DNA from: a phage
Length of the DNA stretch: 64,000 nt
Sequence record: PZ445488.1
Reading direction: 5' to 3' (one strand)
Below are positions 1,889-61,292 of this stretch, in pieces; position 1 is the stretch's first letter, and each line of letters starts with the position of its first letter. The notes beneath the pieces were generated by a model. The model saw only the letters and a list, made by a program, of their open reading frames with translations, made no database searches and was not told the origin of the DNA. A program made the position numbers and the translations under genes.

Positions 1889-3214
1889 TCAAAGTGCCTC
1901 CAAGTCTTTAGTGTACTCTGTCACAACATCAGTAGACTTCCAATACTCATTTTCTTCTTTCTTAGCTTTAGCTTCTTCTGCTAGTTTACGTGCTTCATCG
2001 GAAGTGATATGGAAGATGTTAAGACCTACCAGTTTATCGACATGTTCTTTATACATTTCGATTTGTGCTAGCTCTTCGGTCAAAGCTTTACGAGTCTTGC
2101 CCTGAATCACAATTTCGCCACTGATAACTTTTTTGATGAAGTGTGCCTTAGCAAAAGCAAGTTTAAATGCTTTTTCAGATTCAAGGATTTTGTTGTCAAT
2201 ACGTTTCTGAACGTAAGTCTTACGGACTTCAACAAAATCTTTGATTAAGTCCACTACGTTATCGTAGACTGCTAATTTACCCTTTTCATTAATCACTGTG
2301 ATGTTTTGTGAACGACGTTCGATGAGACTAAAATCTTTCATGATTTTTTCATGACGTAGATCTTCATCATCAGGAAGCGAGTACTCTTTACGGAACTTCA
2401 CCTTAAACCCAAAGCCGTGTTCACCACAATCATCTTCCCATGAGATTAGACCTTTGTCTTCCAACGGGTCAAGAACCTTACTCACATACGTTTCACGGTC
2501 GAATTTATATGGGATTTCAGTTATCTGCATTTGAGTACGAGATGTGAACTTGTATGTTCCGTGAATCTCATAACGCCCATCAACTTCATGCACTTCACCA
2601 CGGAATTCCGGGAATTCAACTTTTGGCTTAGTGACATTTTTACCTTGAAGAGCTTGTAATACAGCCTTTTTGACTGATTTAAAACTATGAGGCAGAATAT
2701 TTGTTGCGTAACCGGTTGCAATACCAGAGACGCCATTCAAAAGAACTGTCGGAATAATAGGAAGATAGAATTTTGGTGGAACGTGTTCTTTATCTTCGTG
2801 AGCTGGAGCATATTCAGTATCTTTATATACGTTATAGAAATTTTTACTTACACGAGCAAAAATATAACGAGATGCTGCAGCTTTTTGGACTGTTCTAGAA
2901 CCAAAGTTGCCTTGGCCATCTAACAGTGGATAATTGTTGTTCCATGTGTTAGCCATTAATGCACCTGCATCTTGTGCAGAAGATTCACCATGGTGATAAC
3001 CTAAATCTGCAACACCGCCTGCAATTGACGCAAGTTTATGAAATTTTTCTTTATTACCACGAGCCAAATCTAATGCACGATGAACCACAAAACGTTGAAC
3101 CGGCTTAAATCCATCAATCATGTTTGGGATTGCACGGTTTTCAACGGTGTACATAGCATATGCTAAGGCTTCGTTATCAATAATACTTTTTAGATTACGA
3201 GAATTCAATTGCAT
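1889..3214 (-). CDS. 52: DNA topoisomerase II medium subunit (GyrA-like)
   Basis: 441 aa (T4 gp52 is 442 aa); GyrA/ParC-like breakage-reunion region; position beside motA. Confidence 0.85.
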   Translation of the reverse strand: MQLNSRNLKSIIDNEALAYAMYTVENRAIPNMIDGFKPVQRFVVHRALDLARGNKEKFHKLASIAGGVADLGYHHGESSAQDAGALMANTWNNNYPLLDGQGNFGSRTVQKAAASRYIFARVSKNFYNVYKDTEYAPAHEDKEHVPPKFYLPIIPTVLLNGVSGIATGYATNILPHSFKSVKKAVLQALQGKNVTKPKVEFPEFRGEVHEVDGRYEIHGTYKFTSRTQMQITEIPYKFDRETYVSKVLDPLEDKGLISWEDDCGEHGFGFKVKFRKEYSLPDDEDLRHEKIMKDFSLIERRSQNITVINEKGKLAVYDNVVDLIKDFVEVRKTYVQKRIDNKILESEKAFKLAFAKAHFIKKVISGEIVIQGKTRKALTEELAQIEMYKEHVDKLVGLNIFHITSDEARKLAEEAKAKKEENEYWKSTDVVTEYTKDLEAL

Positions 3215-4300: not shown

Positions 4301-4339
4301 GATAGGACTACTATACCATAATCCTATCGTGATGTAAAC
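4301..4339 (-). promoter_or_regulatory. early promoter with embedded stem-loop (PeSL-like)
   Basis: gataggactactataccataatcctatcgtgatgtaaac; stem gatagga/tcctatc; GTTTAC on minus strand. Confidence 0.5.
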
Positions 4340-4812: not shown

Positions 4813-4851
4813 GATAGGACTACTATATCATAGTCCTACTTAGTTGTAAAC
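4813..4851 (-). promoter_or_regulatory. early promoter with embedded stem-loop (PeSL-like)
   Basis: gataggactactatatcatagtcctacttagttgtaaac; stem aggacta/tagtcct. Confidence 0.5.
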
Positions 4852-8857: not shown

Positions 8858-9058
8858 TCACAAGTTACGTTTAAAAATTTCTGCTACTTCAAGAAGTTCT
8901 TCTTTAGTAGCTGTATCGGTTTGTATTTTATATCGAATTTCTTTAAAGCGTTCTTTAAAGGACTCTGCTGACTCTATATCAAAAAATCTTTGGATAAGCC
9001 GGAATTCCCGGAGCACTGCTTTATCAAAAAGTTCCAAGTCCACGTTATATGTTCTCAT
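8858..9058 (-). CDS. hypothetical protein (66 aa), rIIA.1-like position
   Basis: Track ORF immediately upstream of rIIA. Confidence 0.45.
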   Translation of the reverse strand: MRTYNVDLELFDKAVLREFRLIQRFFDIESAESFKERFKEIRYKIQTDTATKEELLEVAEIFKRNL

Positions 9059-9150
9059 AATATTCTCTTCAGTAGATTCCTAGGGCACTATTACTAAAGA
9101 CCATATAATCTATCATCTTATGGGTAATAGTGCCTCAGGCGATTCAGGAT

Positions 9151-14672: not shown

Positions 14673-14722
14673 TCTCCTCTGGTTGATATGGTTATAATAT
14701 CAAAACCAGAGGAGAAGTAAAC
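14673..14722 (-). promoter_or_regulatory. early promoter with embedded stem-loop (PeSL-like)
   Basis: 12-bp stem tctcctctggtt/aaccagaggaga around a loop containing tataat; GTTTAC at 14717-14722 on minus strand; the distal stem arm doubles as the GAGGAG RBS. Confidence 0.55.
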
Positions 14723-14726
14723 AACT

Positions 14727-15146
14727 TTATGCGAAAGCAGCTGGGCTATATTTTTTAATTTGGAATTCAGGAACTACCATGAACTGACCAGCGAAAACGA
14801 TGTTATAAAGCTTAACACCATCTTCTACCCAACGGTCGCTAATAAATCCGGCGATTTGCTTAGTTTTCCATGGCGTTCCATCAGTTGCCGCAGCAATAGT
14901 GAATTCATGGTCTTTTTCAACAGAAACTGATCTGCATAGTCCCCATTTGAACGCTTTTTCTTCTGGCTCAATGAACTGGCTTGAGACGTAGCCAATATTA
15001 CCATTAGCATCACGAACTTTAACTTGGTTACGACCAAAAACCGGATCACTCACAGAAAGAACTTCAACCAACTTCCCGGCAACTTTAGAGCGAGAAGCAA
15101 CAGATACATATACGTAATCACCTGTAGAGAGATTTACAATATTCAT
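14727..15146 (-). CDS. paralog family protein A (139 aa)
   Basis: C-terminal GFISDRWVEDGVKLYNIVF shared with the next two ORFs. Confidence 0.5.
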   Translation of the reverse strand: MNIVNLSTGDYVYVSVASRSKVAGKLVEVLSVSDPVFGRNQVKVRDANGNIGYVSSQFIEPEEKAFKWGLCRSVSVEKDHEFTIAAATDGTPWKTKQIAGFISDRWVEDGVKLYNIVFAGQFMVVPEFQIKKYSPAAFA

Positions 15147-15155
15147 AATAATTCC

Positions 15156-15641
15156 TTAAGCTTTACGAGGAGACACATAGCGAGTGATTTCAGATTCTTT
15201 AACAACTCTGAAGTCACCTAAGAATATGATATTGTATAACTTTTCACCATCTTCAACCCATTGGTCACTAATGAAGCCGCACATAGTATCAGTTTTGCTT
15301 GGATAACCGTATTCATCGATGAAGTCAAATTCTTTATCAGTCTGGAATTCAACGCCTTTGCAAAGGGCCCATTTGAACTGTACATTATGCTCTGTGGATT
15401 CAACTTTTTCTCTTGAAGCAAAAGCACTACTCACAGGCGTTTCCAAGAACTTTGCACGAACATAAGCAAATTTGGTTTCCTGTGTCCCAAAACTAGGAAT
15501 AATACGAACTTTTACCTCAGAATCTTCATCTTTAACGCCTTCTTTAAGTTGAATACTTACAACTTCGACCAATTTTCCTGCGGCTTTAGAACGAGATTTG
15601 TTAGATACGCGAACGATTTCACCAATAATACCAAGATTCAT
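15156..15641 (-). CDS. paralog family protein B (about 162 aa from internal Met)
   Basis: Track ORF 15156-15704 trimmed to MNLGIIGEIV...; shares SRSKAAGKLVEV and GFISDQWVEDGEKLYNIIF with neighbours. Confidence 0.5.
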   Translation of the reverse strand: MNLGIIGEIVRVSNKSRSKAAGKLVEVVSIQLKEGVKDEDSEVKVRIIPSFGTQETKFAYVRAKFLETPVSSAFASREKVESTEHNVQFKWALCKGVEFQTDKEFDFIDEYGYPSKTDTMCGFISDQWVEDGEKLYNIIFLGDFRVVKESEITRYVSPRKA

Positions 15642-15703
15642 AATTTCTCTCTCTTTGTTTAAATTGAATTCATTATACTCCATCCATCCTTGGATATACA
15701 ACA

Positions 15704-16198
15704 TTAATTAAGGATATTAACCACAGCACTACGTGGAACTACACTAAAATCACCTGCATGAACAACGTTCAGAAGTTCAACACCGTCTTCAATCCACTGG
15801 TCAGTTACCCATCCATTTACTGGACCTGCGAACGGGCGTCGAATTGAAACATATTTACACAGCAAATCAGTAGGCTCAATAGGCTTAATCAGAGTACCGT
15901 ACATACAAGCGATATCCATATCAATACAGATGTCTTTAACGGGTTCTACTTCTTCAATCAACAGTTCAAAGTCTGTGCTTGGAAGGGCGGTAGTAGAAAT
16001 TGTACCATATGAATTTTTAATTTCTAAGAATAACCAAGGGCCTTCAGCTTGTTTGATGAAGTTAACAATAGTGAAACTATTGCCTTGAGTGGCACCTAAA
16101 ATTTCACAAAACTTTTCGTAAGCTCGCACTGAAGCACTGTACCAGTTGATTTGTTTTTCGTCTTTCAGGATGTAAGTAGCCGTAGTATTGATATTCAT
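15704..16198 (-). CDS. paralog family protein C (164 aa)
   Basis: C-terminal GWVTDQWIEDGVELLNVV motif. Confidence 0.45.
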   Translation of the reverse strand: MNINTTATYILKDEKQINWYSASVRAYEKFCEILGATQGNSFTIVNFIKQAEGPWLFLEIKNSYGTISTTALPSTDFELLIEEVEPVKDICIDMDIACMYGTLIKPIEPTDLLCKYVSIRRPFAGPVNGWVTDQWIEDGVELLNVVHAGDFSVVPRSAVVNILN

Positions 16199-16228
16199 AA
16201 TGTTTTTCCTGTTTGGTTAAGATAGAAA

Positions 16229-16259
16229 GATTATACTCCAACCATCCTTGGTTGTAAAC
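16229..16259 (-). promoter_or_regulatory. early promoter, hairpin-in-spacer type
   Basis: attatactccaaccatccttggttgtaaac = minus GTTTAC-18 nt-TATAAT; spacer holds the caacca/tggttg hairpin; repeated at 57174 and 58193. Confidence 0.55.
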
Positions 16260-20743: not shown

Positions 20744-20781
20744 GATAAGCCTATCATAACACGAGAGGAGGGAATGTAAAC
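20744..20781 (-). promoter_or_regulatory. early promoter
   Basis: Minus strand GTTTAC-17 nt-TATGAT upstream of the 193-aa gene. Confidence 0.45.
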
Positions 20782-26093: not shown

Positions 26094-26132
26094 GATAGGA
26101 CTACTATACTATAGTCCATCTATAATGTAAAC
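26094..26132 (-). promoter_or_regulatory. early promoter with embedded stem-loop (PeSL-like)
   Basis: gataggactactatactatagtccatctataatgtaaac. Confidence 0.5.
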
Positions 26133-27409: not shown

Positions 27410-27448
27410 GTAAGTACATCATATCATGCCTAGAGGAAGATGTAAACC
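27410..27448 (-). promoter_or_regulatory. early promoter
   Basis: Minus strand GTTTAC-18 nt-TATGAT. Confidence 0.45.
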
Positions 27449-51929: not shown

Positions 51930-53743
51930 TGGTGTTTAACCCTATGCATGATTTCTTTATTTTTACCGAGATTAAATCCGCGTTCGTTCGGATTTCCAAG
52001 ATAACCGCATGTTCTTCTTATGGTGTTCATCTTTTTAGGATCAGTTTCTCCACAAACTGAACAAACAAATCCGTTTTCAGTAGGAGTCATTTCATGGGTA
52101 CTTCCACACGTAAAACATTTATCTACTGGCATATTAACACCAAAATAATCTAAATGTTGTGCAGCATAATCCCACACAGCCTCAAGACCTTTTAGGTTAT
52201 TTTTCATATCAGGAAGTTCAACATAAGAAATGTGACCACCTGTCGCAATGAAATGATATGGCGCTTCACGAGAAATCTTTTCAAACGGAGTAATATTTTC
52301 TTCTACTGAAACATGGAAACTATTAGTGTACCAGCCTTTATCAGTGACATCCTTTACACTTCCATATTTTTCTGTATCAAGTTTACAGAAACGATAACAC
52401 AAGTTTTCAGCAGGAGTAGAATATAAACTAAAAGCAAATCCAGTTCTTTCAGTCCACTGTTTAAGATGAGCATTCATTTTAGTTAAAATTTCTTGTCCAA
52501 TATCACGACCAACAAGAATATTCAATTCATGAATACCAATATATCCTAAAGACACTGAACTTCTACCGTTTTTAAATAACTCAATTATATCATCGTCGGG
52601 TTTAAGACGAACACCAAATGCACCTTCTTGGTAAAGAATAGGAGCAACAGTAGCTTTAACTCCTTTTAAGGAACTAATTCTACACATCAAGGCTTCAAAG
52701 CACAGATCCATTCGTTCATTAAATAACTCAACAAATTTCTGTTCATTGAACTGTGTTCCAATATAAGAATCTAACGCGATGCGAGGAAGATTCAGTGTTA
52801 CAACACCGAGATTATTACGTCCATCAAGAATTTCATTACCAGTCGAATCTTTCCATACACTCAAGAAACTACGGCAGCCCATTGGAGAAACAGGAATAGA
52901 TGAGCCGGTGATAGCTTTATTATTCTTAACAGAAATAATGTCAGGATACATTCTTTTGCTTGCACACTCTAGAGCGAGTTGCTTAATATCATAGTTCGGA
53001 TCGTCTTTATAAAGATTAACACCCTCTTCGACAAACATAACAAGTTTAGGGAAAATAGGAGTTATTCCATCACGACCAAGACCTTTAATCCGATTTTTCA
53101 GAATTGCTTTCTGAATCATTCGTTCGGTCCAATCAGTTCCAGTACCAAATGTAATTGTTACAAAAGGCGTTTGCCCGTTTGAACTAAAAAGAGTATTTAC
53201 CTCATACTCATAAGCTTGAAATGCGTCATATACATCTTTTTCTGTTTTAGATTGAGCATAATTCAGAATGTCTGGTATTTGCCATTTTTCTGCATCTTCA
53301 ACATGTTTAGCGTATGTACGTTTAACATAAGGAGAAAGAACTTTATCGACATTCGCAAATGTAGTTCCGCCGTACTGATGTGAAGCAACTTGTGCAGTAA
53401 TTTGTGCCATAATTGCAGTAGCAACACCAATCGATTTAGGCGTTTCAATTTGAGCATTGCCCAATTTAAATCCGTTCTCAAGCATCCCCTTTAAATCGAC
53501 TAAACAGCAATTGGTAAACGGAAGAGCAGGAGAATAATCAATATCATGCATGTGGATAATTCCACTTTCATGCGCATTCATAATAAAAGACGGGACCATA
53601 TTTTTGGCAATGTGCTTAGACACAATACCAGCCATAAGGTCCCGTTGAGTTGGAAAAACACGAGAATCTTTATTAGCATTCTCGTTCAAAAGATCTTTAT
53701 TAGTTTTATAAATTAATCCTTCAATTTCTTTTTCAATTTTCAT
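51926..53743 (-). CDS. nrdD: anaerobic ribonucleoside-triphosphate reductase
   Basis: 605 aa, uninterrupted; C-terminal glycyl-radical motif RRTCGYLG and CxxC zinc site. Confidence 0.85.
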   Translation of the reverse strand: MKIEKEIEGLIYKTNKDLLNENANKDSRVFPTQRDLMAGIVSKHIAKNMVPSFIMNAHESGIIHMHDIDYSPALPFTNCCLVDLKGMLENGFKLGNAQIETPKSIGVATAIMAQITAQVASHQYGGTTFANVDKVLSPYVKRTYAKHVEDAEKWQIPDILNYAQSKTEKDVYDAFQAYEYEVNTLFSSNGQTPFVTITFGTGTDWTERMIQKAILKNRIKGLGRDGITPIFPKLVMFVEEGVNLYKDDPNYDIKQLALECASKRMYPDIISVKNNKAITGSSIPVSPMGCRSFLSVWKDSTGNEILDGRNNLGVVTLNLPRIALDSYIGTQFNEQKFVELFNERMDLCFEALMCRISSLKGVKATVAPILYQEGAFGVRLKPDDDIIELFKNGRSSVSLGYIGIHELNILVGRDIGQEILTKMNAHLKQWTERTGFAFSLYSTPAENLCYRFCKLDTEKYGSVKDVTDKGWYTNSFHVSVEENITPFEKISREAPYHFIATGGHISYVELPDMKNNLKGLEAVWDYAAQHLDYFGVNMPVDKCFTCGSTHEMTPTENGFVCSVCGETDPKKMNTIRRTCGYLGNPNERGFNLGKNKEIMHRVKHQ

Positions 53744-55223: not shown

Positions 55224-55483
55224 TTAAAATATTCTCGTAGTTGGTCAAATCCACCAATATGACTTCCATCAGGAGCAAATACTTGAGGCATAGTCAATCC
55301 AACTTGTGATTCACGTCCAAGCTTAACCAGAAGCTCAGCAATTTTCTCATCATCAAAAACACCTTTTTCTGGCATAACATTAATGAATTCGAATGGCTGT
55401 TTCTTAACAGTCAGCAATCGTTTCGCATTATCACAATAAATGCATTTATGAATAGTAGAGTCATACCCGTACACTTTAAACAT
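55220..55483 (-). CDS. nrdC: thioredoxin/glutaredoxin NrdC
   Basis: 87 aa from MFKVYGYDS...; CIYC redox motif; matches recalled T4 NrdC. Confidence 0.7.
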   Translation of the reverse strand: MFKVYGYDSTIHKCIYCDNAKRLLTVKKQPFEFINVMPEKGVFDDEKIAELLVKLGRESQVGLTMPQVFAPDGSHIGGFDQLREYFK

Positions 55484-55889
55484 TATTTTTCCTTTCATCG
55501 ATTAAATATGCAATGCCAAATACAATACATGTAATAAAACCTGTGATACAGATAGAAACCAACAACACTGTACCAAAGAACCAAATCAAGTTATTTTTAG
55601 TAGTTTGTTTGATATCCATCTCACGAATTTCTATAGCTATCGTATCACCTTTATTCAGAAGCGTATAAAACGACGGTGATACACGCCTGTCAAAAACTCG
55701 TCCTTGCTCATCTTTATAGACTGCAATAAATTCTAATTTAGAATATTTTCCTGTAGATTGGCCTGAGATTAATTCCACTACCTCCACAGGAATTACTTTA
55801 GTTTCCATGTAAGTATTCTGACTGTTCCAAATGAATGGAATAATGGCAAAAACTAAAGCTGCGATAAAACAACGAAGGCTATATCTCAT
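55476..55889 (-). CDS. membrane protein (137 aa)
   Basis: N- and C-terminal hydrophobic helices. Confidence 0.4.
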   Translation of the reverse strand: MRYSLRCFIAALVFAIIPFIWNSQNTYMETKVIPVEVVELISGQSTGKYSKLEFIAVYKDEQGRVFDRRVSPSFYTLLNKGDTIAIEIREMDIKQTTKNNLIWFFGTVLLVSICITGFITCIVFGIAYLIDERKNNV

Positions 55890-56194
55890 TATAATATTCT
55901 CTCAAATTTGTGGAAGCATTTACGGCATTTCAATTTCAAGTTATCAGTGGTCCAGTTAACCAGTTGGACTTGGATAGTTCCACATTCCGGGCATGGATGT
56001 TTTGCTGCTGATTTGGCAGCATTTTCACGTCGTTCAACCATTTTCATTATTTCGTTCCATGCCGGAGGAACGAACTCTTCTTCACCGTGGATTTTATCTC
56101 GCTGAACAAATTCAATCTTTGAACTATCGTCAATAAACTTAACCAAGCAGTGGTTAGTGTTCATATCAATATCCTCTAAAAGACGTAGTTTCAT
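55889..56194 (-). CDS. zinc-ribbon protein (101 aa)
   Basis: C-terminal CPECG...CRKC. Confidence 0.4.
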   Translation of the reverse strand: MKLRLLEDIDMNTNHCLVKFIDDSSKIEFVQRDKIHGEEEFVPPAWNEIMKMVERRENAAKSAAKHPCPECGTIQVQLVNWTTDNLKLKCRKCFHKFERIL

Positions 56195-57144
56195 TATAAC
56201 ACCTCAATGGCATTTCGTAAACCATCCGCTTTTGCATTCAGAGCTTTTAATGATTTAGTTTGTTCTGCAATCTGGGCTTCGACTTCTTTCAGACGTGATT
56301 TGAGGTATTCACGTTCTTCGCTCAGGTTATCAACCTTTTCTGCTTTAGGTTCTTTAATAGGCTTAGACTTAAACACATTAGGATTCTTCAGCTTAATTCG
56401 GGTGCGAGAACTATATAACATTGAACCGTTATCTTCGGATTCGTCGAACGTTTCAACAACATCCATAGTCTCTAACAATGTAATAAGTTTATAAGACAAT
56501 GAACGAACGGTTTTGTTATGCTTATTAATTTCTTCAGCTTTCATGGTACCGAGATTACGTGAGTAGTAATAAGGAACCTGGATATCAATTGATAATGATG
56601 CGTTACCATTACCGGTTGGTTTGAATACTGCAGTAACCCAATCTTTAACATGAACTTTATTTGTACGGCCATCACCGCCAGTGAATAATTTACGAGAATG
56701 TTTAAAAAGCATATTCACTTGGTTATTGAATTCACAAGCAAATTTATCAGCAAATTTAGTTTCAGGAATGGTAGATAACCAATCAGCCAAATGAGTCTTT
56801 TTAACATCATTAACAATAGTGAATTCAACCAAATCGGTTTTAGATGTCACAGATTTAATAAAGCTCGGCTTCATAAAGTTTTTAATGTTATCGCGAGCTA
56901 CAGTAGAAGATAATAAACGAGAACGTTTGAACCATTGAAGCAGTGTCCCTAATGAATGAGAATACGCATTCTGAGTATCTTTACAGATATGATTTTCTTG
57001 ACCTGTGTATGTACCAAAATCGCGAAGAATACCACTTACTACATCTCGGTGTGGAACATCAAATCCTAGTGCACCAACAGCGCGCTTGGCATGAACGTTA
57101 GCGATAAGACCGGCAAAGTATTCAATGTAATGTGAACGTGTCAT
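56194..57144 (-). CDS. hypothetical protein with C-terminal coiled coil (316 aa)
   Basis: Heptad-like C-terminus LSEEREYLKSRLKEVEAQIAEQTKSLKALNAK; own hairpin-in-spacer promoter. Confidence 0.45.
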   Translation of the reverse strand: MTRSHYIEYFAGLIANVHAKRAVGALGFDVPHRDVVSGILRDFGTYTGQENHICKDTQNAYSHSLGTLLQWFKRSRLLSSTVARDNIKNFMKPSFIKSVTSKTDLVEFTIVNDVKKTHLADWLSTIPETKFADKFACEFNNQVNMLFKHSRKLFTGGDGRTNKVHVKDWVTAVFKPTGNGNASLSIDIQVPYYYSRNLGTMKAEEINKHNKTVRSLSYKLITLLETMDVVETFDESEDNGSMLYSSRTRIKLKNPNVFKSKPIKEPKAEKVDNLSEEREYLKSRLKEVEAQIAEQTKSLKALNAKADGLRNAIEVL

Positions 57145-57173
57145 AATATTTTCCTCTCGTTAAGATAGATTCA

Positions 57174-57203
57174 TTATACTCCAACCATCCTTGGTTGTAA
57201 ACC
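57174..57203 (-). promoter_or_regulatory. early promoter, hairpin-in-spacer type
   Basis: attatactccaaccatccttggttgtaaac, exact copy of 16229-16259. Confidence 0.55.
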
Positions 57204-57206
57204 GTT

Positions 57207-58166
57207 TTATGATTTTAATGCATTCATTGCATTAAAAAGTTTAGAATACTGCAACTGGAGATTCGTTACAACACTTTGAGCATCACGAAGCTTAGCTTGT
57301 GCTTTGTCAAGTTCAACGGACAGTTGGTCCATAGTGGCCTTGATTTGATTGTAATGGTAATCTTCGACCGGAAGAAGGTCATTAGAAACATTTAGTTTTA
57401 CTGCAGACAGTTTGCACACATTTGGCAAACCTTTAAACATTGATTTACCCGAAGTAGAATATGAACCTAGAACTTCAGCATTACCAATTGGGGTTGCAGT
57501 AATTGACGCTTCAAATGTTGCATTTTCCTTTTTAAGATTTTGATAGTATTCAGAGTCTTTGTGCCACCATGGCGCAGGAACCTTTTTACCAATAGATACA
57601 CGAGCCTGGATAGCGATATGGCCCTTATTCTTGATAGGGTCGATAATATTAAGCTCACGAGAATAAATTGCTTTAATCTGGTGGATATTATCACCTAAAA
57701 CTTCCAACGCTTGGTGGAATACACGAGCAACGTTATCATTCTTAGGTTTATACGTAAGAGTGAACTCGTTCTCACTGATAACCATGATTTCCAACTTATC
57801 GTAAGTATATTTCAAATGTTTCATGTTAATTGCTTGAGGACGAATACGAGAAGCAATGGCCATCAGATTGTTAAGGTTATTCCGGAACTGCTTAGCGAAA
57901 TATTGTCCTTCACCGCCAATACAAAAATTACGAAGTTTCTGTTTGGCTAATAAACGGCTGAACTCACCATTTTTAATGAACTCTTTAACGGGCGTGTTAG
58001 TAACACATTCAAATTGAGTAAACATACGAGAAGTAATCCCATAATACGAACAGACTTCCTCAATCTCTTCAGGAGTTTTTACAGGCATACGGATAGGATT
58101 AGGTCCTGGAGTATATGCGTTCGAGGTAAATTCTTTGATAAGTTCTCTACGTGTAATAAAAGCCAT
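57207..58166 (-). CDS. hypothetical protein with C-terminal coiled coil (319 aa)
   Basis: C-terminal MDQLSVELDKAQAKLRDAQSVVTNLQLQYSKL; own hairpin-in-spacer promoter. Confidence 0.45.
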   Translation of the reverse strand: MAFITRRELIKEFTSNAYTPGPNPIRMPVKTPEEIEEVCSYYGITSRMFTQFECVTNTPVKEFIKNGEFSRLLAKQKLRNFCIGGEGQYFAKQFRNNLNNLMAIASRIRPQAINMKHLKYTYDKLEIMVISENEFTLTYKPKNDNVARVFHQALEVLGDNIHQIKAIYSRELNIIDPIKNKGHIAIQARVSIGKKVPAPWWHKDSEYYQNLKKENATFEASITATPIGNAEVLGSYSTSGKSMFKGLPNVCKLSAVKLNVSNDLLPVEDYHYNQIKATMDQLSVELDKAQAKLRDAQSVVTNLQLQYSKLFNAMNALKS

Positions 58167-58192
58167 TTTATATTCCTCATGTTGAAAAATTT

Positions 58193-58223
58193 ATTATACT
58201 CCAACCATCCTTGGTTGTACATC
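58193..58223 (-). promoter_or_regulatory. early promoter, hairpin-in-spacer type (variant -35)
   Basis: attatactccaaccatccttggttgtacatc. Confidence 0.5.
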
Positions 58224-59217
58224 ATTCCTTAAGAAGTTTTACTACTTGAATAAGATTAGCTCGTTCTGTTTTATTTTTACCATTTAAGCCTGCTAATCGT
58301 GAGATTTCATCGTCAGTCTGTTGAATAGTTACATTAAGTTCGTTAATCAAAGCTTCAAAGTATTTGATTTGCTCAGCATGTTTTGATTCAAATTTCTGAA
58401 CCGGAATAACGTCTTGGTTCAGTTCATCAATAAGGTCTTTAAGAGCATCTTCTTGGTTGATATCATATTCAACTTCTTTTATTTCTTCAACGAGCTCGTC
58501 TTTATATCTAACGTCTTTTAGTCCTGGAGCTGGTCCTGAAATCTCTTCTTTAAGAGTACAAACATACCCAATACGGTATCCAATGCCGTCTCGCTTGATA
58601 TCAACTTCGTCGATAAATCCACAATGTTTAAGACCAGAGCCGATTATGTCAAAATATCCTTGACGTCGTCCTTCAAACGTTACACGAACTACTAAGACAG
58701 TTTTACCACCAACCTTTTGAAGCTCACATTTATAAAAGTCTGTTGAACCTGAATAACGTGGATGAGTTTTAAAGTTCATCTGACGATCTAGGCCCATTTG
58801 TAAACGTGCTGTTACGGCCATAAAACGTGTTTGGTTCTCGTTAAGATGAGCAACAATCCATTTCAAAGGCATTTTACACTGTTCACGACCGAACAAATCA
58901 GTACGTCCTAGATTACGCAGGATATTGTTAGAGTTAATCATCGACAGAACGTTAAGTTTATTCAGCGCGCTGAAGATTCCATCAGCCATTGATTTTCCAT
59001 AACCTTTACACGCTTTAATAAGTGCTCGCGGCAGATTAGTATAGATTTCAGACGGCATATGAAAATCAAATTTACTAGTCAGTAATTGATGAACTTGGAT
59101 AGCAATTTGCTCATAATTAAGTGCTCTGCGATCGTTATGGTCTTTAAACCACACTTTAATCTGTGAAGCACATAAACCGTTAATTTCATGTTTTACCGCA
59201 TCAGATGTAATACTCAT
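58222..59217 (-). CDS. hypothetical protein with C-terminal coiled coil (331 aa)
   Basis: C-terminal EQIKYFEALINELNVTIQQTDDEISRLAG. Confidence 0.45.
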   Translation of the reverse strand: MSITSDAVKHEINGLCASQIKVWFKDHNDRRALNYEQIAIQVHQLLTSKFDFHMPSEIYTNLPRALIKACKGYGKSMADGIFSALNKLNVLSMINSNNILRNLGRTDLFGREQCKMPLKWIVAHLNENQTRFMAVTARLQMGLDRQMNFKTHPRYSGSTDFYKCELQKVGGKTVLVVRVTFEGRRQGYFDIIGSGLKHCGFIDEVDIKRDGIGYRIGYVCTLKEEISGPAPGLKDVRYKDELVEEIKEVEYDINQEDALKDLIDELNQDVIPVQKFESKHAEQIKYFEALINELNVTIQQTDDEISRLAGLNGKNKTERANLIQVVKLLKE

Positions 59218-59279
59218 AACTATTTCCTCAGATTGAATTGGAACTCAAAACCATTATAACCCGTCCTTGGGTAAAGCGT

Positions 59280-59807
59280 TTATGCGTGAACCGTCTTTAA
59301 ACGTTCTTCAAATTTCCGAAGAGTACTAATACGTTCTGCTTTCTGTTTTGTATAGTTTGCAATACGTTCTGAAGTGAGAGCGTATCGTTCGTTTACTGTT
59401 TCTTTCATGAAGTCAGGGATTTCACGAGAAGCTTTAATTTCATCAAACTTGTCGAGTACTGCCTGGTCTTCAGCGATTAAATTTTCATACATCTCGATAT
59501 CTTTCTTGATAAACTCGATATCTTCCTGAGTTACTTTGGATAAACGAGATGCTTTATCCTTTTTGTACTGCTCGTTAGTTTCACGAGACCAGAATAATGT
59601 ACGTTTTTTGTTAGTGTTTTTGTAGACTTCCACAATTCCAACTGAATCGATGATAACAATCCAATTCCAGCGAGATTTGAAAATCTGACCTCCATCCACG
59701 GTAATCTCGTTACCATAAGCAACGTCATTAAAGAACTTGCTCTGTGCTTCAGATTTAAATTTACCGTCGTTATAATTTACCAGGTTGAAAATATCTTTAG
59801 CGTTCAT
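59280..59807 (-). CDS. hypothetical protein (175 aa)
   Basis: Track ORF with PeSL-like promoter. Confidence 0.45.
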   Translation of the reverse strand: MNAKDIFNLVNYNDGKFKSEAQSKFFNDVAYGNEITVDGGQIFKSRWNWIVIIDSVGIVEVYKNTNKKRTLFWSRETNEQYKKDKASRLSKVTQEDIEFIKKDIEMYENLIAEDQAVLDKFDEIKASREIPDFMKETVNERYALTSERIANYTKQKAERISTLRKFEERLKTVHA

Positions 59808-59825: not shown

Positions 59826-59863
59826 GATAGGTCTATAATAACATAACCATAGACCTTGTAAAC
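59826..59863 (-). promoter_or_regulatory. early promoter with embedded stem-loop (PeSL-like)
   Basis: gataggtctataataacataaccatagaccttgtaaac. Confidence 0.55.
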
Positions 59864-60290: not shown

Positions 60291-61292
60291 TTATTTCAGT
60301 AAAGTTACTTCAGAGATTTCCTCCCAACCATCTTTATCAGTTGAAATAAAATCTGCTACATAAAGAGCCGTACGTAATGATACATTGCGAAGACGAGATA
60401 CGTTAGCCTTCATCCAGGACAATGCTTTGTACGTTTCAGCATCAGTCAAGCCACGTTTCTGCATCATGTCAGTAGATAATATTACATCTTCAACTCGAAC
60501 CATAATCTCTTCATTAGAGTGTACTCCAAGGTCCAAATACACTGAACGAGATACTAAAGCTTGAAGGTGTGGAGCAAGTTTCGAACCGCGTTCTAACTCT
60601 TTATCAATATCAACGTTTGTAATGAAAACGATAGTACCTTCAAACTCAAATTCTTTATCGATACCCTTATCCTCGAGATAAGATGACGCAGTGCTCCAAC
60701 AAACTTTGCGTTTATCTCCGGTATCTAATGCTGCTTTAAGAAGGTTCAGGATGTCCATATCTGAGAATACGTCAACGTCATCGATTAAGAGAACGCTGTC
60801 TTCATCACGGTTGAGCCAAAGTTGTTCGTAAAGGCCAATACCGGAGATTTTACCATTAATGCTTTTGTATTTGATGAAACCATTATCATTAGCATTATTA
60901 AGTGCTTTATCCAGAGAATACGTCTTACCAATACCAGCTGCACCTGAAATAATGAGTGAACGAATTTTGCCATCAATAATGCCATTCGTCATCATGTTCA
61001 TTACTTTAAAGCGTTTGTTGATACGAGTTTTCATATCTTCAGTGCTTTCAACAACTGCAACTGGTGACGTCTCAACTCCTTCCATTACGATGTCTGATTT
61101 GAAGACCCATACTCCACGTTCAGAACCATCAATCATAACGAAAATTTTACCGTCACCTAAGTGGGAACATTCAGGATTAAGCTTTGCCGGGAACCATGTC
61201 TTTGTGGCAACATAAGAACCAGAGATTTCGTTATTACGATAGATACCTTTTTTGATTTGAACGTTGAACATTTTATTCTCCAATTTACTCAT
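60291..61292 (-). CDS. P-loop NTPase (AAA-like) of unknown function (333 aa)
   Basis: Walker A SGAAGIGKTY and Walker B VLLIDDVD after a roughly 110-aa N-terminal domain. Confidence 0.5.
   Translation of the reverse strand: MSKLENKMFNVQIKKGIYRNNEISGSYVATKTWFPAKLNPECSHLGDGKIFVMIDGSERGVWVFKSDIVMEGVETSPVAVVESTEDMKTRINKRFKVMNMMTNGIIDGKIRSLIISGAAGIGKTYSLDKALNNANDNGFIKYKSINGKISGIGLYEQLWLNRDEDSVLLIDDVDVFSDMDILNLLKAALDTGDKRKVCWSTASSYLEDKGIDKEFEFEGTIVFITNVDIDKELERGSKLAPHLQALVSRSVYLDLGVHSNEEIMVRVEDVILSTDMMQKRGLTDAETYKALSWMKANVSRLRNVSLRTALYVADFISTDKDGWEEISEVTLLK

Follow-up and report, generated by a model that had tools for sequence, protein, structure and literature searches.

The nrdC block of a Mosigvirus

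The DNA analysed here, a 64,000-nucleotide stretch from a phage (sequence record PZ445488.1; the window), carries three tandem open reading frames (ORFs), which we refer to as w316, w319 and w331. A preliminary description, made from the sequence alone, had read them as a diversifying accessory family of coiled-coil proteins, each expressed early and independently from an identical promoter with a hairpin in its spacer, and of the kind often involved in host takeover or counter-defence. Its observation proved largely right in substance but wrong about an identical element ahead of every ORF, and its interpretation is largely borne out. The tandem arrangement and similar sizes are confirmed, with all three ORFs on the minus strand:

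56194..57144, minus strand: w316, ORF of 316 amino acids, NrdC.3 orthologue (phrog_1435, PF26897)
57207..58166, minus strand: w319, ORF of 319 amino acids, RB69-type NrdC.5 and member of DUF7235 (PF23882, phrog_2351)
58222..59217, minus strand: w331, ORF of 331 amino acids, NrdC.6-family protein (phrog_2257, PF26899)

Sequence searches match the 4.1-kb region to a fragment of Escherichia phage CEV1 at 100% identity and to many Mosigvirus (RB69-like, T4-type) coliphages at 97-98%, and on this identity we assign the window to a Mosigvirus, an RB69/CEV1-like T4-type coliphage. The annotated relative ATK47 has a block running nrdC - nrdC.x - nrdC.11, flanked by pin/gene 49 and mobD, and the three ORFs probably make up the nrdC.3 / nrdC.5 / nrdC.6 block of this hyperplastic pin-nrdC-mobD region. 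T4 has four such genes in tandem, in the order nrdC.6,.5,.4,.3. The two phages share the order relative to nrdC.8 and nrdC.2, but this phage lacks the NrdC.4 that T4 has, and a gene for an nrdC.7-like membrane protein lies here at the nrdC.1 position. In ATK47 and many GenBank genomes, the label 'thioredoxin' has spread to nrdC.2 through nrdC.11; it is a misannotation, because it derives from locus names only and these proteins have no thioredoxin domain. The nrdC.x block, mostly mislabelled in this way, is one of the most poorly understood regions of the best-studied phage.

Three protein families with C-terminal helices

Each ORF product falls into a family of its own. w316 is 57-59% identical to T4 NrdC.3 and matches phrog_1435 over its full length (residues 1-316, E=3.6e-102), PF26897 is found on all of its homologues, and its layout runs from a helical N-terminal region through an alpha/beta centre to a coiled coil at the C-terminus. 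w319 matches PF23882 over its full length (residues 15-318 on profile positions 1-307; E=1.1e-121, 406 bits with a cut-off of 30) and phrog_2351 with E=4.3e-100; T4 NrdC.5 matches the same Pfam profile with E=5.3e-126, and the two proteins are just 24% identical (E=1.6e-11). w331 and T4 NrdC.6, which are 29-33% identical (E=1.6e-18), match phrog_2257 with E=1.6e-127 and 6.4e-126, respectively. Sequence and profile searches of the PDB with all three families returned no match, and NCBIfam and Pfam returned, beyond the proteins' own families, just weak coiled-coil noise and no informative domain.

A C-terminal coiled coil had been proposed for all three proteins; it is supported for w316 and w319 and weaker for w331. 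AlphaFold2 (AF2) predicts long C-terminal helices at residues 275-315 of w316 and 266-318 of w319, the most confident parts of otherwise poor models, and testing the final 42 residues for heptads gave p=0.002 for w316, p=0.0005 for w319 and only p=0.12 for w331. In the T4 reference (NC_000866, locus stretch 9000-9100, minus strand), nrdC.6 is annotated with 275 amino acids, compared with 295 in its orthologues from other T4-type phages, and the conserved C-terminal helix (SSKAKSEREKLIKIVDLLKS) runs on in another frame past the annotated stop. We therefore take the T4 reference to carry a frameshift, or a sequencing error, by which the coiled coil is truncated.

Evidence for a single, very diverged superfamily

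To call the three ORFs divergent was an understatement, as pairwise BLASTP finds no similarity between any two of them. Are they one family at all? Paralogues found in the window, in seven IMG/VR loci and in GenBank loci (T4, SG1, ESCO47 and the Dhakaviruses Bp7 and SHP1) were combined into alignments of three families, F34 (NrdC.3 with NrdC.4), F5 and F6, which we compared by hhalign. NrdC.3 and NrdC.4 share one PHROG and align with 93.6% probability over 241 columns, and with shallow profiles this was the only significant comparison. The deeper F34 profile, however, is linked to both other families by alignments that are collinear across 200-270 columns: F34-F5 gives P=1.2e-4 in local mode and 4e-6 to 1.3e-5 in global mode, and F34-F6 gives P=2.5e-4 to 1.1e-3 in local mode (232 collinear columns) and 1.9e-5 to 3e-4 in global mode. 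In the single-family controls, reversed profiles gave P>=0.04 and the unrelated NrdC.10 and NrdC.11 families P>=0.07.

We also merged the families two at a time and tested each merged pair against the family left out. The merged F34 and F6 profile matched F5 with P=1.5e-7 local and 7.9e-10 global (94-96% probability), and the merged F5 and F6 profile matched F34 with P=3.6e-6 local and 6.6e-9 global; reversed controls for the merged profiles stayed at P>=0.013. The alignments cover columns of the N-terminal and middle parts, outside the coiled coil, and two motifs can be seen by eye in every branch (SRLLxxxxxxxLxNF and FxxxFxxNQxxxLxxxASRLxxG), as can a common C-terminal end, LxxA[ILM]xxLK. 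The common layout would comprise a variable helical N-terminal part, the two conserved motifs, a small alpha/beta region, a linker and a C-terminal amphipathic helix.

Several results pull the other way. F5 and F6 compared directly are not significant (P=0.04-0.07), and the merged F34 and F5 profile matches F6 weakly in local mode (P=0.012; 1.6e-4 global). AF2 models of w316 and w319, made from alignments of close homologues only, have a mean predicted local distance difference test (pLDDT) score of 53.6 and 39.8, too poor for a fold comparison, which we attribute to those alignments; the order of secondary-structure elements is similar between the two, but the models are unreliable, so that the long C-terminal helices emerge from the proposed structural check and a common fold does not. 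A search of BFVD with the better model found only an NrdC.3 orthologue and a fragment.

The alternative is that three unrelated ORFans share their size and a generic C-terminal coiled coil, having been inserted as independent cassettes into a hyperplastic region with no duplication and divergence. The blank BLASTP comparisons, the three separate Pfam and PHROG families, the non-significant shallow profiles and the F5-F6 comparison would all fit this account, and shuffling by promoter-early stem-loop (PeSL) cassettes is known to juxtapose unrelated ORFs (PMC4122927). It leaves unexplained the collinear F34-F5 and F34-F6 alignments (P from 1e-3 to 4e-6), the merged-profile values down to 7.9e-10 beside reversed and unrelated controls at or above 0.013, and a signal that comes from the N-terminal and middle motifs and lies outside the coiled coil, together with a C-terminal motif common to all branches. 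We consider this alternative unlikely. The profile-profile support for one superfamily that includes NrdC.4 is moderate to good, and a single, very diverged NrdC.3/4/5/6 superfamily, as the preliminary description had proposed for the three ORFs, is not proven but in our judgement a strong probability. This evidence is a modestly new result; we found no annotation of such a link.

Accessory genes that diverge faster than their neighbours

The accessory status proposed for these genes is borne out. There are four copies in T4 and SG1, three in this phage and in the Dhakaviruses, whose sets differ, and two in ESCO47, which has no NrdC.5-type gene. Identity between this phage and T4 is 99% for NrdD, 92% for NrdC, 88.5% for gp49 and 83% for NrdC.8, falling to 57% for w316, 29% for w331 and 24% for w319, which supports, at the level of sequence, the view that the three are accessory genes diverging much faster than their neighbours. 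An exhaustive HMMER search of 1.84 billion representative proteins with the NrdC.3 profile found no relative outside T-even phages; the matches were NrdC.3 itself, fragments and, as the sole non-self match, Dhakavirus NrdC.4 (E=1e-5). With the family confined to T-even-like phages, this search therefore gave no functional lead.

Two classes of promoter ahead of the three genes

The promoters of the three genes are as follows:

57173..57202, minus strand: early promoter of w316, exact 30-nucleotide element; -35 GTTTAC/TTTACA, -10 TATAAT (57178-57173)
58193..58222, minus strand: early-type promoter of w319, two-mismatch copy of the element with a weakened -35, ATGTAC/TGTACA
59253..59281, minus strand: middle-type promoter of w331; MotA-box-like aaaCGCTTTA (59281-59272), 13 nucleotides, TATAAT (59258-59253)

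The 30-nucleotide element occurs exactly at 57173-57202 and 16230-16259 and with two mismatches at 58193-58222, where shuffles lead one to expect 0. Because the genes lie on the minus strand, it is to be read as its reverse complement, GTTTACAACCAAGGATGGTTGGAGTATAAT, which on the coding strand resolves into GTTTAC-AACCAAGGATGGTTGGAG-TATAAT. At w316 the promoter matches 11/12 positions of the sigma-70 consensus with a 17-nucleotide spacer (counted from TTTACA), and a hairpin, CAACCA-AGGA-TGGTTG (57197-57182), fills the spacer, is followed by GGAG and is present in the minimum free energy fold. The w319 promoter matches 10/12 positions and has the same hairpin at 58217-58202, and its -35 abuts the w331 stop codon. 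These two sites have the properties of T4-type early promoters, which the w331 promoter does not. The element was thus wrongly taken to be identical ahead of all three ORFs: it is exact at w316, altered in two positions at w319, and replaced at w331 by a different, MotA-type promoter.

Upstream of w331, only the core CCAAGGAYGG is common with the 30-nucleotide element; the hairpin there is ACCCA-AGGA-CGGGT (59272-59259), its closing pair being an A.C mismatch, and a sigma-70 scan does not call the promoter. Middle promoters are defined by a MotA box, (a/t)3TGCTTtA, 12+/-1 bp from the -10 (PMC2988021), and the w331 sequence is predicted to be one of them, with one mismatch in the box. Its counterpart in T4 would be the MotA/AsiA-dependent PnrdC.7, which has a mapped start at 53325 and appears in Table 1 of identified middle promoters in Hinton 2010 (PMC2988021), and whose sequence is CGCTTTA-TACCAAGGATGG-TATAAT. 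Both lie downstream of nrdC.8 and combine a CGCTTTA box, the CCAAGGAYGG core and TATAAT, and on this likeness we regard the w331 promoter as the positional homologue of PnrdC.7. They differ in that the box lies 13 nucleotides from the -10 at w331 and 12 in T4, in that the w331 promoter drives an NrdC.6-family gene directly, nrdC.7 having moved, and in that PnrdC.7 has been mapped whereas the w331 element is known from sequence.

The claim of independent early expression consequently holds in part: each gene has its own promoter, two of them early and the third of the MotA middle type. Given the two promoter classes (two sigma-70 early, one MotA-type middle), expression per gene would be independent but staggered in time. 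A point against generalizing this arrangement is that T4 nrdC.5 and nrdC.6 have no promoter of their own, which makes one promoter per gene lineage-specific. No intrinsic terminator was found on the coding strand between the genes. A further 10/12 sigma-70 match (56193-56222, minus strand; GTTTAC..TATAAT) lies in the last codons of w316, with its -10 overlapping the ATG of an nrdC.2-like gene; the GTTTAC derives from the conserved codons G-L-R of the C-terminal motif, and the match is probably coincidental because T4 has no TATAAT there.

A covarying AGGA-loop hairpin

In all these promoters, a hairpin of the form NNCCA-AGGA-TGGNN sits between the -35 or MotA box and the -10. Among tetraloop hairpins of the pooled loci, those with an AGGA loop are the most frequent, and every promoter-associated one of these lies on the coding strand. 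We collected twelve distinct variants, including CAACCA/TGGTTG, ATCCA/TGGAT, CATCCA/TGGATG, AGCCA/TGGCT, CCACA/TGTGG, TTATACCA/TGGTATAA and ACCCA/TGGGT, which amount to at least six stem variants around the same AGGA loop. Across the collection 86% of cells are paired, compared with 66% when shuffled; 4/6 pairs vary on both sides of the stem, and at one pair each of the four Watson-Crick types occurs. Covariation scores 0.465 versus 0.095, with 0/500 shuffles reaching the observed 0.465 and slid controls at <=0.11, and the measure is unbiased because the outer pairs are not in the selection pattern. This covariation argues that the hairpin is under selection for base pairing, and a covarying AGGA-loop hairpin common to early and middle promoter spacers is, like the evidence for the superfamily, modestly new.

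A T4 copy lies in an early promoter upstream of rIIA.1 (locus stretch 2420-2460, minus strand), reading GTTTAC-TT-TACCACA-AGGA-TGTGGTA-TAAT; its distance from the nrdC block shows that hairpins of this class occur in more than one region. The T4 scan that found it covered the first 54 kb of the genome. Scanning IMG/VR for CAAGGATG-N(2-10)-TATAAT yielded mostly chance matches, with stem lengths decaying as chance predicts, and IMG/VR contained only 7 NrdC.3 loci.

Might the hairpin have no function of its own, arising as a by-product of quasi-palindrome-templated mutation or of shared descent and gene conversion among cassettes? The stem is just 5-6 bp long, its folding energy is not significant, Rfam offers no match, and copies within a genome are near-identical over ~45 nucleotides, which points to conversion or recombination. 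Set against this are at least six stems that stay paired while the AGGA loop is invariant, in early as well as middle promoters and across three genera; pairing kept at non-orthologous loci, T4 rIIA.1 among them; and the four Watson-Crick pairs at one stem position. We regard a mere by-product as improbable. Less probable still is that the inverted repeat is an operator at which a dimeric phage or host DNA-binding protein regulates these promoters. The space between -35 and -10 is a classic operator site, and the inner CCA/TGG half-sites and the centre are conserved, but the outer stem positions covary instead of being conserved, the AGGA centre is asymmetric, and the distance from hairpin to -10 varies. 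The loop lies 3-10 nucleotides from the -10 box, and there is therefore no fixed contact with RNA polymerase.

The reading we prefer is that the hairpin would act as RNA, in read-through transcripts that come from upstream promoters, where it may mark the 3' boundary of the upstream cistron. In most variants GGAG follows the hairpin at once and is fused to the -10 box (GGAGUAUAAU), and GGAGUAUAAU(G/A/C) matches 8-9/11 positions of the RegB/S1 site, GGAGRAYARAA, a single-stranded 11-mer in which U is tolerated at position 5 and rare at position 10 (PMC1702504). RegB cleavage at the adjoining GGAGUAUAAU may act together with the hairpin; in such a processing model, a 3' end or a RegB cut would fall at UGGUUGG/AGUAUAAU and would depend on the stem.

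A number of observations count against an RNA role of this kind. The hairpin is in the minimum-energy fold on both strands, but its folding z-scores are unremarkable (-0.8 to -1.7; for the w331 copy, +1.1 on the sense strand), and because it has no U-tract it is not a canonical terminator. No Rfam family matches the region, and we found no documentation of RegB cleavage at these hairpin sites. Natural stem mismatches (T to C at the closing pair at several loci, G to A once) are all A.C in the sense strand, equivalent to G.U in the antisense strand, and so do not favour sense-strand RNA. An antisense-RNA reading, prompted by these G.U mismatches, is disfavoured, as the plus strand of the window has no late-promoter consensus TATAAATA. 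We also rejected the RegB-cleaved GGAU of T4 motB.2 as a hairpin loop, since that GGAU is the Shine-Dalgarno sequence. The hairpin, within both sigma-70 and MotA-type promoters, is small and tractable, and may connect the architecture of promoters with mRNA processing and modular gene exchange.

Promoter cassettes and probable modular exchange

The hairpin promoters are parts of intergenic cassettes of 55-62 bp that contain a stop codon, a -35 or MotA box, the hairpin, a -10, a conserved 5' leader and a ribosome-binding site (RBS). About 45 nucleotides, from the -35 through the conserved leader TCTATCTTAAC, are common to the cassettes, of which there are five copies in the window, all ahead of variable paralogue arrays: the nrdC block and a MotB-like array by dexA. 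Similar cassettes, the PeSLs and the middle-promoter PmSLs, lie between accessory ORFs of the hyperplastic regions of T4-type phages (Arbiol 2010, PMC2839356; Comeau 2014, PMC4122927), and PeSLs give rise to deletions, insertions and mini-circles, some of the crossovers falling within the loop (PMC2839356, PMC4122927).

The cassettes described here resemble PeSLs in being short repeats between accessory ORFs that bring together a stem-loop and an early promoter, strong and sigma-70-like in the published cases, with an RBS and a start codon. In published PeSLs, however, the stem-loop directly precedes the promoter and works as a terminator (GGGG..CCCC in RB49; AGNA-loop-TCNT in PST/T4), whereas here a 5-6 bp AGGA-loop hairpin without a U-tract, and not terminator-like, is nested between the -35 or MotA box and the -10. 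The repeated promoter with a stem-loop is therefore present and the upstream terminator stem-loop is not, as we found no terminator-like site on the minus strand. Comparative evidence for recombination comes from ESCO47, which lacks the NrdC.5-type gene and in which the promoter combines two cassettes: its left half is of the w319 type (ATGTAC-AACCAAGGA) and its right half of a different type (CGGATGGAG...), leaving an A.A mismatch in the stem. We read it as a chimera that switches inside the hairpin, as a crossover within the hairpin would give. The repeated cassettes may act as short homologies for the loss, gain and swap of array genes, in a PeSL-like modular shuffling.

A displaced gene lies next to the array: a predicted membrane protein with 40% identity to T4 NrdC.7 is encoded at 55476-55889 (minus strand), between nrdC and nrdC.2, while in T4 nrdC.7 lies between nrdC.8 and nrdC.6. 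It appears to be an example of cassette relocation inside the nrdC block. The genes themselves, their Pfam and PHROG families, the T4 early and middle promoters and PeSL-type cassettes are all of known kinds.

Counter-defence as the most likely function

One of the three families has a member with genetically demonstrated counter-defence activity. An evolved T4 clone carrying a deletion was unable to infect ECOR17 owing to Dsr1, a SIR2-domain defence; T4 nrdC.5 is an early gene whose expression restores infection of dsr1-carrying cells, and nrdC.5 alone, expressed from a plasmid, is sufficient to restore plating on dsr1+ cells (Srikant, Guegler and Laub, eLife 2022, PMC9391042). The product of a neighbouring gene, gp49.2, is an inhibitor of OLD (PMC13096335), and with nrdC.5 and gp49.2 both lying there we consider the region rich in counter-defence genes. 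By analogy with T4 NrdC.5, counter-defence is the most likely function of the paralogues, and w319 is the branch most likely to share the anti-Dsr1 role: the two proteins have the same Pfam and PHROG families, position in the block, size and C-terminal coiled coil, and differ in that the w319 gene has its own early-type promoter and T4 nrdC.5 does not.

How might such proteins work? Each paralogue would be produced within minutes of the onset of infection and might act as a non-enzymatic, stoichiometric binder that oligomerizes via its coiled coil and neutralizes a host immune protein through its variable body, the presumed seat of specificity. We infer this mechanism from the facts presented here and from how anti-sirtuin proteins such as DSAD1 work. 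DSAD1, the DSR2 inhibitor of SPbeta, is like T4 NrdC.5 a phage protein that neutralizes a defence-associated sirtuin NADase, and its mechanism is known structurally (PMC11087589). It is a functional analogue, with no detected sequence relationship to NrdC.5, a different target (DSR2, not Dsr1) and an origin in another phage lineage.

Weighing on the other side, anti-Dsr1 activity has been shown for T4 NrdC.5 only, 24% identical to w319, and in the literature we found nothing on the mechanism of NrdC.5, nor anything on NrdC.3, NrdC.4 or NrdC.6. What had been suggested of counter-defence thus holds for the NrdC.5 branch, as represented by T4, and has no counterpart so far in the NrdC.3 and NrdC.6 branches. 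The proteins could instead serve another early role, such as host takeover by acting on the nucleoid, transcription or the membrane, with the Dsr1 phenotype being indirect. The missing mechanism leaves room for this, w316, w319 and w331 match no anti-defence or defence model, and, elsewhere in the window, MotB-like DNA-binding proteins of host takeover lie behind the same promoter cassette. On the other hand, nrdC.5 by itself suffices on dsr1+ cells, the genes are dispensable and vary in copy number, and other anti-defence genes such as gp49.2 lie nearby. A takeover role is the less probable explanation, and we retain counter-defence as the most likely function.

If four of the largest nrdC.x ORFs form one fast-evolving family with a proven anti-Dsr1 member, the other paralogues become candidate inhibitors of other E. 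coli defences. A bolder extension, which we offer as speculation with the odds well against it, is that NrdC.3/4/5/6 are modular coiled-coil immune antagonists, each retargeted to another defence effector, with Dsr1 merely the first found, and that the AGGA hairpin is a dedicated signal for RNA processing or structure-specific recombination that allows these genes to be expressed autonomously and swapped between T-even phages.

Other features of the window

Away from the nrdC block, the hairpin promoter has two more copies:

16230..16259, minus strand: distant exact copy of the hairpin early promoter, driving a MotB.2-like ORF (15704-16198) next to dexA
15672..15701, minus strand: diverged hairpin promoter, the fifth copy, with a -35-like TTGTAT and the hairpin ATCCA-AGGA-TGGAT at 15695-15682

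The first had been reported as a fourth copy at 16229; the copy is exact, and the reported position is off by one. The second drives a MotB-like ORF with a probable start at 15644. Both belong to an array by dexA (14727-16259, minus strand) of three tandem MotB-like paralogues with the C-terminal motif GFISDQWVEDG..LYN..F.G.F.VV, two of them behind the hairpin cassette (16230-16259 and 15672-15701) and the third behind a promoter at 14694-14722 with a spacer complementary to its own RBS.

Just upstream of the nrdC array, at 60291-61292 (minus strand), lies a homologue of NrdC.10 (333 amino acids). It contains a Walker A motif, weakly matches AAA/STAND NTPase models and clamp-loader PHROGs, and is an accessory, uncharacterized protein.

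Further early promoters, all on the minus strand, carry two other classes of inverted repeat. In the first (4310-4339, 4822-4851, 26103-26132 and 59835-59863), base pairing between the spacer and the first transcribed bases encloses the -10 (TAGGACT..TATAGT..AGTCCTA; AGGTCTAT..ATAGACCT). In the second (14694-14722, 20753-20781 and 27418-27447), an anti-Shine-Dalgarno sequence in the spacer pairs with the downstream RBS (tctcctctggtt..aaccagaggaga; cctcc..ggagg; ttcctct..agaggag). Repeats of this second class would sequester the RBS in read-through transcripts, a form of control known for the T4 genes e, soc, 49 and I-TevI.

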